From Phycisphaeraceae bacterium (lineage in GTDB: Bacteria > Planctomycetota > Phycisphaerae > Phycisphaerales > Phycisphaeraceae): DNA of 64,000 nucleotides. A program made the translations under genes and the position numbers. The stretch covers positions 3,818-67,817 of the forward strand of contig JBBDPC010000100.1 of NCBI GenBank assembly GCA_040876735.1. Reading direction: 5' to 3'. Positions within the stretch are counted from its first letter, which is position 1, and each line of letters begins with the position of its first letter. Below, piece after piece: positions 324-29,051 of the stretch. The notes under the pieces are model-generated. The model had not been told where the DNA came from. It did no database searches and was given only the letters and a program-made list of their open reading frames with translations.

Positions 324-541
324 GGGGTTCGGGATTCGGGATTCGGGGTTCGGGAAAAAACGCCCGAGCCTGAGGAGCGCAGCGACGAAGGGCGGGATGA
401 GGGGGAATGTGTGATGTGTGATGTGTGATCGATGATGTCAGGGAGCGCCAGGCGGTCCCGGTGAACGATCGATTACAGATCATCGATCACAGATTGATCG
501 ATCACCCTGATCCGGGGCTTCGCGGACTCAGCCCTCGGCTT
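324..541 (+). repeat. composite dispersed repeat, copy 1
   Basis: Modules in order: (GGGRTTC)n heptamers, palindrome CGCCCGAGCCTGAGGAGCGCAGCGACGAAGGGCGGG, (GTGTGAT)3, then CCGGGGCTTCGCGGACTCAGCCCTCGGCTT. Near-identical to the reverse complement of 28861-29051. Confidence 0.9.
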
Positions 542-20409: not shown

Positions 20410-20862
20410 GGATGGCACGGTAAAAGTCCCCTGCGGGTTTCAAGGCTGTCCGCGACGATCGGACGGCCTCCTGCCATCCAAACCCCCGTCGCGAACGAAT
20501 TCCTGTTCCGACAATCGGTCCGTCACGCGCCCCGGGGCCAGTTCTCGCCCCAGCCACACCAGTCACACCAATCTGCCGGAACATGACGCGTCTAAGGGAA
20601 CCAACGGCCCGCACCATCGTATATTGCGGCGGCGGCCGTTTTTCTCCCCGACCCCGAACCACCCGCCCCGTGCCGCAGCGGGCGAATGCTCGAATCAACT
20701 GTTAAGTGCGCCTAAAATAAACATTTAGAAACGCATCGCCGATTCGGGCTTGACAATCTCCCCCGCCGCTGCTCAAGTGTCACGCCGCCCGCCCCGGCCG
20801 GATTCGACAGAAATGGGCAAACGTCGAGCGGGCAATGACCGATGAACAGCGCTGGCATCTGC

Positions 20863-23745
20863 ATGGCCAAAAAATCCACCAAATCCCGCGCCGCCGGCCG
20901 CAAGACCGGCAAGTCCACCACCACCCGCCCCAGCGGCAACGGTCGCACCGCGCGCAGCCAGCAGAAGGCTCCCGACGCCACCGGCAAGCACCTGGTCATC
21001 GTCGAAAGCCCCACCAAGGCCCGCACCATCAACCGCTATCTCGGCTCCGACTACGTCGTCATGGCCAGCGTCGGCCACGTCCGTGACCTGCCCAGCAAGG
21101 CCCCCAAGGGCGAAAAGCAGGAAGTGCCCGGCGTCGACCTCGAGCACGACTTCGAGCCGACCTACGACATCCTGCCCGACAAGAAGAAAACCGTCACCGA
21201 CCTCCGCAAGGCCGCCAGGCAGGCCACCGACATCTGGTTCGCCACCGACCTCGACCGCGAGGGCGAGGCCATCGCCTGGCACCTCGCCGAGGCCTTGGGC
21301 ATCGACACTGACCAGGCCAAGCGCGTCGTCTTCAACGCCATCACCAAGGGCGAGATCGACCGTGCCTTCCAGGAGCCGCGCAACATCGACCAGGCCATGG
21401 TCGACGCCCAGCAGGCCCGCCGCATCCTCGACCGCATCGTCGGCTACCAGGTCTCCCCCCTGCTCTGGAAAAAGGTTGCCGGCGGACTCAGCGCCGGCCG
21501 GGTCCAGTCCGTCGCCACCCGACTCGTCGTCGAACGTGAACGCGAAATCGAAGCCTTCACCCCCGACGAATACTGGCGCATCACCGGCCTGTTCGCCACC
21601 GCCCTCGACAAAGCCGGCCAACTCGGCGAGCAGTGGCAAAAATGGCTCGCCGGCTCGGAAGACAAGCCCCGCACCGTCCGCGAGCAGAACGCCTGGCTCA
21701 GCGAGCACGACTGCCTCCGTGCCGAGTTGGCCGAACTGCAGGGCAAGACCTTTGAGGCTGACAACCGCGACGACGCCCGCAAGGCCGCCGAGCTGCTCGG
21801 CTTCGTCATCGACGACACCGAAGAAAAGAGCGACGAGAAGGCGAAGGGCCCGGCGAAGAACATCATCCGTTACGTCGGGCACGTCGGCGACGATCGGCCG
21901 GACTACGCGATCGAGTCGATCCAGACCAAGCGCACCACCAGCCGGCCGCCGGGGCCGTTCATCACCAGCACCATGCAGCAGGCCGCGGCCAACCGCCTCG
22001 GCTTCCAGCTTCAGCGCACCATGCGGCTGGCGCAGCAACTATATGAAGGCGTCGACCTCGGCGGCGCTCGCGGCCAGACGGGCCTGATCACCTACATGCG
22101 TACGGACTCGACGCACCTGTCCGGCGACGCGCTGAACATGGCCCGCGGCTACATCGGCGAACAGTTCGGCGACCACTACCTGCCCGAGAAGCCCAACTTC
22201 TTCAGCTCCAGCAACAAGTCGGCGCAGGAAGCCCACGAAGCGATCCGCCCCACCGACGTGTCGATCACGCCCCAGGCTGTCCGCCGATCGCTCAACGACG
22301 ATCAGTTCAAGCTCTACGACCTGATCTGGCGTCGCTTCGTCGCCTGCCAGATGCTCCCCGCCCAGTGGGACTCGACCACCATCATGATCGCCGCCAAGCC
22401 GAGGGCTGAGCGCAGCGAAGCCCCGGATCAGCCGCTCGCCCGCTTCAAGGCCACCGGCCGCAAGCTCGTCTTCGACGGCTTCTACAAGGTCGCCGGCGTC
22501 CCCACGGGCGACGACGTCGTGCTCCCGGAACTGGAAGAGAAGCAGCCGCTTGGGCCCGTCGCCATCGACCCGACGCAGCACTTCACCAGCCCGCCCGCCC
22601 GCTACACCGAGGCCTCGCTGCAAAAGAAGCTGGAAGAGGAAGGCATCGGTCGGCCGTCCACCTACGCGGCGATCATCGGCACGATCCAGGATCGCGAGTA
22701 CGTCGCCCCCGTCGCCCCGCGCGACCGTCGGCTGATGGCGACTGACCTGGGCAAGGTCGTCACCGACATGCTCGTGCTCGCCTTCCCCGAGGTGATGGAC
22801 GTCGCCTACACCCGCGAGATGGAAGCGGAGCTGGACCACATCGAGGACGAACGCCACGACTGGCGGAAAATGCTCCGCGAGTTTTACGGCCCGTTCCGCG
22901 AAAAACTGGACAAGGCCCACGAAGAGCTCCAGCACGCCAAGGCCGCCTCCATCCCCGCCCCCTACACCTGCCCCAAGTGCGGCGCGCCGACCGAATACCG
23001 CTTCGGCCGCAACGGACGCTTCCTCTCCTGCACCCGCTTCAACGTCCCGCCCGCCGAGGTGAAAGTCAAAGACCAACCCGGCACGTACCTGCTCTACAAA
23101 GCCAAGGGCAAGGCTCGGCCGAAGATCATCAGCGAAGACGGCAGCAAAAAGATCGGCTGGACCAAGCTCACCGCCGAGGAAAAAGAGAAGTTCCAGAAGA
23201 TCAGCGACGCGATGGAGACCTGCGACTACGCCGCACCGATCGACCGCGAAGGCAAGCCGATGGAGCCGCAGCTTTCGGACATCGCCTGCCCCGAGTGCGG
23301 CAGCGAGATGACCAAGCGCACCGGGCGGTTCGGCGCGTTCCTCGGCTGCGTCAACTATCCGCAGTGCAAGGGCATCGTCAAGCTCGACCCCAAGAAGCAG
23401 ACGGTCATCCTGCCCAAGACCGAGCCGCTCACGACCGACATCCCCTGCCCCAAGTGCGAAAGCCCGCTCTACCTGCGCGAGTCCAAGCGCGGGCTGTGGC
23501 TGAGCTGTTCGACGTTCCCCAAGTGCCGCGGCCGGGTGGGCTTCAACACGCTTGAAGAAGAGAAGCAGGCCGAGCTTGAAAAAGCCTGGGCCGAGCACGA
23601 GAAGCAGAACCCCAAGCCCGTCATCCGCACGGTCGAAGGCGACGTGGTCGAGGAAGGTTATCTCCCCAAGGTCACCGGCGAAGGCGACGACGCCGCCAGC
23701 AGTGACGGCCACGCCGACGACATGCCCAGTTCCGACGCGGCGTGA
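20863..23745 (+). CDS. topA: DNA topoisomerase I (type IA) with C-terminal zinc ribbons
   Basis: LVIVESPTKA, ATDLDREGEAIAWH, SAGRVQS, LITYMRTDS (catalytic Tyr), QEAHEAIRPT, GIGRPSTYA; three C4 zinc ribbons. Confidence 0.97.
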   Translation: MAKKSTKSRAAGRKTGKSTTTRPSGNGRTARSQQKAPDATGKHLVIVESPTKARTINRYLGSDYVVMASVGHVRDLPSKAPKGEKQEVPGVDLEHDFEPTYDILPDKKKTVTDLRKAARQATDIWFATDLDREGEAIAWHLAEALGIDTDQAKRVVFNAITKGEIDRAFQEPRNIDQAMVDAQQARRILDRIVGYQVSPLLWKKVAGGLSAGRVQSVATRLVVEREREIEAFTPDEYWRITGLFATALDKAGQLGEQWQKWLAGSEDKPRTVREQNAWLSEHDCLRAELAELQGKTFEADNRDDARKAAELLGFVIDDTEEKSDEKAKGPAKNIIRYVGHVGDDRPDYAIESIQTKRTTSRPPGPFITSTMQQAAANRLGFQLQRTMRLAQQLYEGVDLGGARGQTGLITYMRTDSTHLSGDALNMARGYIGEQFGDHYLPEKPNFFSSSNKSAQEAHEAIRPTDVSITPQAVRRSLNDDQFKLYDLIWRRFVACQMLPAQWDSTTIMIAAKPRAERSEAPDQPLARFKATGRKLVFDGFYKVAGVPTGDDVVLPELEEKQPLGPVAIDPTQHFTSPPARYTEASLQKKLEEEGIGRPSTYAAIIGTIQDREYVAPVAPRDRRLMATDLGKVVTDMLVLAFPEVMDVAYTREMEAELDHIEDERHDWRKMLREFYGPFREKLDKAHEELQHAKAASIPAPYTCPKCGAPTEYRFGRNGRFLSCTRFNVPPAEVKVKDQPGTYLLYKAKGKARPKIISEDGSKKIGWTKLTAEEKEKFQKISDAMETCDYAAPIDREGKPMEPQLSDIACPECGSEMTKRTGRFGAFLGCVNYPQCKGIVKLDPKKQTVILPKTEPLTTDIPCPKCESPLYLRESKRGLWLSCSTFPKCRGRVGFNTLEEEKQAELEKAWAEHEKQNPKPVIRTVEGDVVEEGYLPKVTGEGDDAASSDGHADDMPSSDAA
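22396..22430 (+). repeat. REP-like module inserted in frame in topA (encodes KPRAERSEAPDQ)
   Basis: AAGCCGAGGGCTGAG-cgca-GCGAAGCCCCGGATCA versus the reverse complement of 508-541, AAGCCGAGGGCTGAG-tcc-GCGAAGCCCCGGATCA. Confidence 0.85.
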
Positions 23746-28822: not shown

Positions 28823-29051
28823 CGGGGTTCGGGGTTCGGGGTTCGGGGTGATTTTATTCAGAAGCCGAGGGCTGAGTCCGCGAAGCCCCGGATGAGGGGG
28901 ATCGATGACCTATAGAATCGCCTGGCGCTCTCTGACATCATCGATCACACATCACACATCACACATCATCCATTCCCCTCATCCCGCCCTTCGTCGCTGC
29001 GCTCCTCAGGAGCGGGCGTTATAAAATCTTCCCGAATCCCGAATCCCGAAT
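28823..29051 (-). repeat. composite dispersed repeat, copy 2 (inverted relative to 324-541)
   Basis: Bounded by (GGGGTTC)3 plus GATTTTAT on the left and ATAAAATC plus (CCCGAAT)3 on the right; contains (ATCACAC)3 and both palindromic modules. Confidence 0.9.

Follow-up and report, generated by a model that had tools for sequence, protein, structure and literature searches.

A dispersed 35-base hairpin-like repeat sits in frame inside topA, the gene of a type IA topoisomerase I, in a Phycisphaeraceae bacterium (NCBI GenBank assembly GCA_040876735.1, here G000). We consider it likely, with a probability of roughly 0.7, that the repeat is a lineage-specific insertion at what is predicted to be the tip of a surface β-hairpin, and that it is tolerated there, its peptide being a neutral passenger. 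Almost all relatives lack the insert. Coordinates without a genome label refer to the window, i.e., the whole 64,000-nt stretch analyzed (contig JBBDPC010000100.1, positions 3,818 to 67,817).

The Insert and Its Host Protein

The insert (22396..22430, forward strand) consists of a 15-nt arm, a CGCA centre, and a 16-nt arm. It is in frame, coding for KPRAERSEAPD and supplying two bases to the Gln codon that follows, and the topA reading frame passes through it as TTIMIAA-KPRAERSEAPDQ-PLARFKATG. Both arms match exactly the reverse complement of an intergenic 34-nt copy with a TCC centre at 508..541 (reverse strand), after which, on the same strand, come short tandem repeats. A second intergenic 34-nt copy with a TCC centre (28862..28895, forward strand, heptamer-like repeats on its flanks) matches likewise outside the centre over 28862-28893, with the next base, near the 3′ end, as its one mismatch. 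The earlier note had described just such a repeat module within topA, identical in its arms to these two copies and different in its centre, and this description was confirmed. The exact two-arm pattern has 69 matches in G000 against none when read backwards, and the probability of the exact insert codons given the peptide is 2 × 10−7 under the codon usage of the genome (AGG 1.1%, GCT 2.4%); the match to the repeat family is therefore not due to chance. The topA copy carries no changes from the family consensus.

The host gene is intact (20842..23745, forward strand; alignment to relatives favors a second ATG, at 20866, as the start). Its product matches TIGR01051 (topA) with 779 bits at a cut-off of 456, contains the Pfam domains Toprim, Topoisom_bac, and Zn-ribbon, and is the sole PF01131 match found in the 89% complete genome. 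The nearest named homologues belong to Phycisphaeraceae and Phycisphaerales. Conserved TopA motifs and invariant columns are kept in the insert-bearing protein, including the ITYMRTD motif, whose Tyr codon (22093..22095, forward strand), that of the catalytic tyrosine of TopA, lies 101 codons upstream of the insert. Alignment with Escherichia coli TopA leaves a gap of 12 residues at G418/D419, where the insert lies. In an AlphaFold model built from 101 sequences (pLDDT 91), the fold of which matches the solved structure 4RUL, the insert lies between strands 281-293 and 307-318 and is predicted to form the tip of a β-hairpin on the protein surface, presumably in the domain II arch. A single-sequence model was discarded (pLDDT 36).

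The length of this loop varies widely, from 13 to 58 residues in 111 of the 120 homologues parsed, with a mode of 15; the loop of the G000 protein has 25 residues, five more than that of G001, a genome of the same genus. The site had been described as one where TopA normally has a short β-turn, which is correct for the turn position, but in Phycisphaerae the turn is often not short. The repeat peptide was found in three of 118 TopA protein loops, two of them from the species of G000, and in one of 75 loops at the DNA level, while a representative-protein search yielded no further copies among its 27 hits. As the earlier note had expected, the peptide is thus lineage-specific among the TopA proteins compared, and conservation in relatives lacking the repeat family was not seen. 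As a separate observation, the TopA matches of six relatives (G008, G009, G010, G026, G032, G040) are interrupted near query residues 262-345, which suggests that these relatives have a second insertion site of larger size.

The Repeat Family

With up to two mismatches allowed within the 11+11-nt arms, G000 contains 86 family copies, compared to none for the reversed control. The units are 34-41 nt long; 75 have a three-nucleotide centre and 11 a longer one. As the earlier note had proposed, the element is dispersed and mostly intergenic, with 82 of the 86 copies outside scored coding sequence. Only four lie inside genes, though approximately 83% of the genome is scored as coding, and all four belong to the 11 longer-centre copies, in contrast to none of the 75 copies with a three-nucleotide centre (Fisher p 1.6 × 10−4). 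Under a stricter pattern, heptamer tandem repeats flank 51 of 73 three-nucleotide copies, compared to one of seven longer ones and 30 of 2000 random sites. The three-nucleotide copies are embedded in a larger composite, in which heptamer-like units, G-rich and AT-rich, are repeated in tandem; in the window, these lie at 408-507, 28826-28850, and 28900-28975. A neighbour gene common to the intergenic copies was not found. The remaining copies with a four-nucleotide centre (G000:C158:41080, C112:9762, C147:10860, C126:32949) have sense orientation and are located either immediately ahead of a start codon or between two genes of the same direction, such as a prs-like and an rplY-like gene; they are therefore probably transcribed.

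The family has a patchy distribution: exact matches occur in four of 41 relatives, G000 included, and matches within two mismatches in six of 401 genomes of the class. The GTDB collection contributed 23 family loci, all titled Phycisphaerae or Planctomycetota, and a JGI metagenome scan a single locus; a search of Rfam with the repeat returned a chance hit only, far below the gathering score. Outside G000, 52 of 61 copies have a four-nucleotide centre; the topA copy therefore represents the widespread form and the TCC form a local expansion in G000. In 77 of the 80 G000 copies matched, NAAG stands immediately 5′ of CCG, and some G000 copies have GTAG one base further out. Nine of the 61 outside copies start with GAC-GCCG, the reverse of CGTC.

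The base closing the three-nucleotide loop is C in all 48 four-nucleotide-centre copies compared, and 30 of the 48 loops read GNA. Stem variants exchange pairs (GGGCT/AGCCC 39, GCCCT/AGGGC 2, GGGAT/ATCCC 1), although the search pattern itself demanded a largely paired stem, which makes these counts circular and biased as a test of pairing. Single-stranded DNA is stabilized by GNA triloops and by tandem G-A pairs, and the loop and stem pattern would thus fit a hairpin that is read as DNA. By nearest-neighbour energy, folding is no better than that of shuffles, with a z of +0.1 for the topA copy and −1.45 for 508-541. The term palindrome, used previously for the element, is consequently weak in energetic terms.

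Turnover and Age of the topA Copy

All six aligned copies of G001 are missing from the matching G000 site, and G001 carries neither the MnmA nor the GluQ copy of G000, its GluQ loop being occupied by heptamer repeats. Most family copies are lineage-specific, and turnover is fast. A recent gain of the topA copy is the simpler reading of these data. Alternatively, the insertion may predate the split between G000 and G001, having eroded in G001, whereas in G000 gene conversion from the large repeat family would have preserved it or returned it to consensus; the four-nucleotide centre would have stayed because the common three-nucleotide centre would shift the frame. We regard this as a rather improbable course of events, but one with several observations in its favor. 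The G001 TopA loop aligns to the repeat better than shuffles do (p 0.02-0.03), and in the terminase-like gene discussed below, the copy is eroded in G001 (p 0.0016), perfect in G000, and missing in G005. Furthermore, the topA copy of G000 is perfect and keeps its rare codons even though only 68% of the four-fold sites of topA are identical between G000 and G001, and KPKAGPD, found at this loop in the TopA protein P0123, resembles the repeat peptide minus its middle four residues. On the other hand, the G001 score is marginal, as the loop ranks ninth of 75 and several of the eight loops above it have no evident repeat; KP...DATF turns are common among relatives without the repeat; and the lineage-specificity of most copies speaks for recent gains. 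Judging from the terminase-like gene and the TopA loop, some in-gene copies may be old and refreshed.

Recurrent Insertion in TopA and MnmA Loops

The TopA protein P0003, 72% identical overall to that of G000, carries the same 11 residues (11/11 identical) at the same position. Its near sibling P0123, 92.5% identical to it, has KPKAGPD at the loop instead. After removal of the loop, these two proteins fall together with those of Poriferisphaera (97% SH-aLRT). A topology test on 26 rows with a quick LG+G4 tree rejected one clade of P0003 and P0123 with the G000 protein and its closest homologue, P0002 (p-AU 0.0019). A FastTree phylogeny of 78 TopA rows agrees with the separate placement. The identical peptide would accordingly have been gained twice, in separate lineages and in the same TopA loop, as judged for P0003 from its protein sequence. 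This constitutes a natural experiment, with the same 11 residues twice in one loop and near-empty sibling alleles for comparison.

At the DNA level, seven of 75 distinct topA loops contain recognizable repeats, a rate that is overstated as 20 of the 75 loci were chosen mostly for long matches. Besides that of G000, these comprise a sister hairpin in G437, two palindrome dimers, and three heptamer arrays, and six genomes other than G000 thus carry other repeats in the loop. The sister hairpin in the topA loop of G437 is a repeat with five copies in that genome, 51 in G502, and none in G000. Two short pieces at loose contig ends of run X3 give weak evidence of yet another stem variant in this loop. 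Several of the TopA-loop gains share an ERSE core in the same frame. These comparisons mark the TopA loop as an insertion hot spot and as a natural insertion-tolerant site.

For MnmA, the family was present in three of the 25 loops parsed from 30 loci, namely in G000, in G447, and as a decayed copy in G424, while the loop of G502 holds the sister repeat. The copy in G000 is a 41-nt variant (G000:C170:43600-43645, locus L210), in frame in the loop after GHYAR. This loop is a second hot loop, occupied by the family in three genera, by the sister hairpin, by another palindrome type, and by tandem arrays (loci L210, L209, L213, L220, L215, L222, L225, L232, L239, and L240).

Proposed Mobilization and In-Frame Transposases in ValS

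We propose that the repeat is a non-autonomous REP-like element and that a single-stranded hairpin is the form in which it would be copied. The enzyme would probably be an HUH/Y1 (RAYT-type) transposase whose gene lies at another locus or has meanwhile disappeared, the choice of enzyme being a guess. Selection would then remove nearly all in-gene insertions, and the survivors would be insertions that preserve the frame and are located in flexible loops. Such a survival filter would explain the same TopA loop and an MnmA loop being filled repeatedly, each time by the host genome's own repeat. G000 encodes four Y1 matches; family copies flanked a Y1 transposase at none of the 27 Y1 loci in the 89% complete G000 and five carrier genomes, and one variant copy near a Y1 locus sits within a neighbouring aconitase gene. 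The earlier note had called the palindrome mobile, which copy turnover suggests, while a cognate transposase was not found among these 27 loci. A target-site rule for the family could not be established.

Two same-loop pairs among the 13 pattern-found copies correspond to P ~0.003 if approximately 1000 sites, an assumed number, are equally usable, and this excess could reflect targeting rather than survival. In a bolder version, which we hold to be improbable, the hot loops would be actively targeted and not merely tolerated: HUH/Y1 elements of Phycisphaerae would home to fixed sites in essential enzymes acting on nucleic acids (TopA, MnmA, and ValS) as intein-like passengers that are never spliced out, whole transposase genes would land in frame, as in the ValS genes of G000 and G038, and the hairpins would be footprints refreshed by each genome's repeat family.

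The valS gene of G000 (L044:1-3090, G000:C126:1-3687) harbors, in frame, the whole of a REP-associated tyrosine transposase (NF047646, 94.8 bits, cut-off 80) with an inverted palindrome pair on its flanks, and this insert is absent in all five relatives checked, G001 included. In ValS of another family (L104, G038:C1:109986-113195), a different Y1 transposase occupies the same site, again in frame, but with different flanking repeat-derived peptides. No report of a RAYT fused in ValS was found in the freely accessible literature covered. That two families have complete Y1 transposases in frame at a single site of ValS is a lead with more promise than the topA copy itself.

In-Frame Copies in Other Genes and the Question of Function

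Across Phycisphaerae, 13 in-frame copies were found in 11 gene families, using four frames and both strands. In G000, in addition to topA and mnmA, they include a copy antisense to the GluQRS gene (G000:C159:15550-15580) and one antisense to a terminase-large-subunit-like gene (G000:C6:4681-4711), both in frame; the latter gene is conserved in all five relatives checked. Outside G000, nine of 61 copies lie in frame within recognized proteins, again in four frames: MnmA, a SpoU methylase, an ABC-F linker, RecO, a Zn-dehydrogenase, MurG, a class-III aminotransferase, and two E2 linkers. The in-frame tally leaves out loci L076, L134, and L066, which have no Pfam match, as well as L132, which lies upstream of the EF-G domains, and the G000 copies on C39 and C117 were not backed as in-gene by per-copy coding scores. 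The use of four frames and both strands argues that no particular peptide is being selected.

The earlier note had gone further and regarded the repeat as recruited as a protein loop. Recruitment, either as a charged loop that alters DNA or partner binding of TopA or as a hairpin, in DNA or mRNA, by which topA expression is tuned, is in our view quite unlikely. It would account for the repeated gains in the TopA loop, several with the ERSE core in one frame, and published intragenic REPs cluster in DNA-repair and tRNA genes (PMC3733652, in the part covered). However, the loop contains peptides of several unrelated types, including heptamer arrays and other palindromes, loop length is free, most relatives have no insert and the near sibling P0123 lacks the peptide, the hairpin is no more stable than shuffles, and the insert has no sign of the synonymous drift that would mark selection on the peptide. 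Together with the four frames in unrelated proteins, this leaves recruitment unsupported. The finding would gain in importance if the recurrence were due to targeting or selection, as it is a long-open question why intragenic REPs favor DNA and tRNA enzymes.

A single insertion shared by G000 and P0003 through horizontal transfer of a short topA segment is more doubtful still. The identity of the 11 residues at the same position in proteins that are otherwise 72% identical would be explained, but the immediate flanks differ (IMIAA...QPLARF vs VLI...ATF), and any transferred tract would therefore be no longer than the repeat itself; moreover, P0123 has the flanks of P0003 without the peptide. 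Finally, an assembly artefact at a high-copy repeat, conceivable given the very high summed repeat depth in the runs and the contigs that often break there, can practically be dismissed, as topA is contiguous on both flanks, both junctions are bridged without any difference by one contig of run X1, which may be the source sample, the left junction is also covered in a second sample, and the centre differs from the abundant form. The TopA protein cluster also contains two full-length NCBI proteins with the peptide.

Relation to Known Repeats

GTAG/CGTC REPs are imperfect palindromes of 20-40 bp, most of which lie between genes and a minority in frame within them (Di Nocera, De Gregorio, Rocco 2013, PMC3733652). 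According to the parts of that paper covered here, the intragenic ones are concentrated in DNA replication/repair and tRNA-related genes, many occur in the PVC bacterium Opitutus terrae, a same-site insertion is noted once, in recB of two Xanthomonas species, and flexible linkers or loops are offered as one reason for their neutrality. The present family resembles them in size (34-41 nt), in being multi-copy and mostly extragenic, and in its in-frame minority. In contrast, its left end in G000 is NAAG-CCGA, with no terminal GTAG or CGTC tag, and several repeat families have entered one and the same TopA loop in different lineages. The words topoisomerase and gyrase are absent from four supplements of PMC3733652, and PRAE, RGLS, and AKPR from its intragenic table, which holds one SEAP and one PGLR, both in other families.

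Rickettsia palindromic elements, of approximately 150 bp, lie in genes in nearly half of the cases and code for a conserved peptide (review PMC10969869, as far as covered). The analogy drawn before to these elements and to intragenic REPs holds in that a palindromic repeat lies in frame in unrelated, intact housekeeping genes; unlike the Rickettsia elements, the present repeat has 35 bp, approximately 5% of its G000 copies are in genes, and it uses four frames instead of one conserved peptide. REPtrons combine a RAYT/TnpA-REP with flanking REPs, and the class 3 TnpA-Y1 of Planctomycetes has a CnGA foot (Quentin et al. 2018, PMC6006769, in part). Shared features are a putative hairpin with internal mismatches, CCGA before the stem, and the presence of Y1 genes in G000, whereas the family matches none of the class 3 consensus sequences listed and does not flank any of the Y1 genes examined. 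Since it differs from GTAG/CGTC REPs in the tag, from the Rickettsia elements in size and peptide, and from REPtrons in the lack of a flanked Y1 gene among the 27 loci, the G000 repeat is filed as a REP-like family of its own. Neither this family nor any REP in TopA was found described in the freely accessible literature covered, and the known peptide-coding palindromes are hereby joined by an apparently undescribed repeat family and by topoisomerase I as a host.

A flipped-stem variant of the repeat, with no matches in G000, occurs in frame in the C-terminus of an aconitase (G010:C17, L111:1043-1077), and a small Y1 gene adjoining that aconitase (L111:1190-1880) is flanked by a different palindrome family. 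In the same genome, REPIN-like inverted doublets of the main and flipped-stem variants occupy two adjacent intergenic gaps (G010:C58, L031:1501-1600 and 2170-2270).
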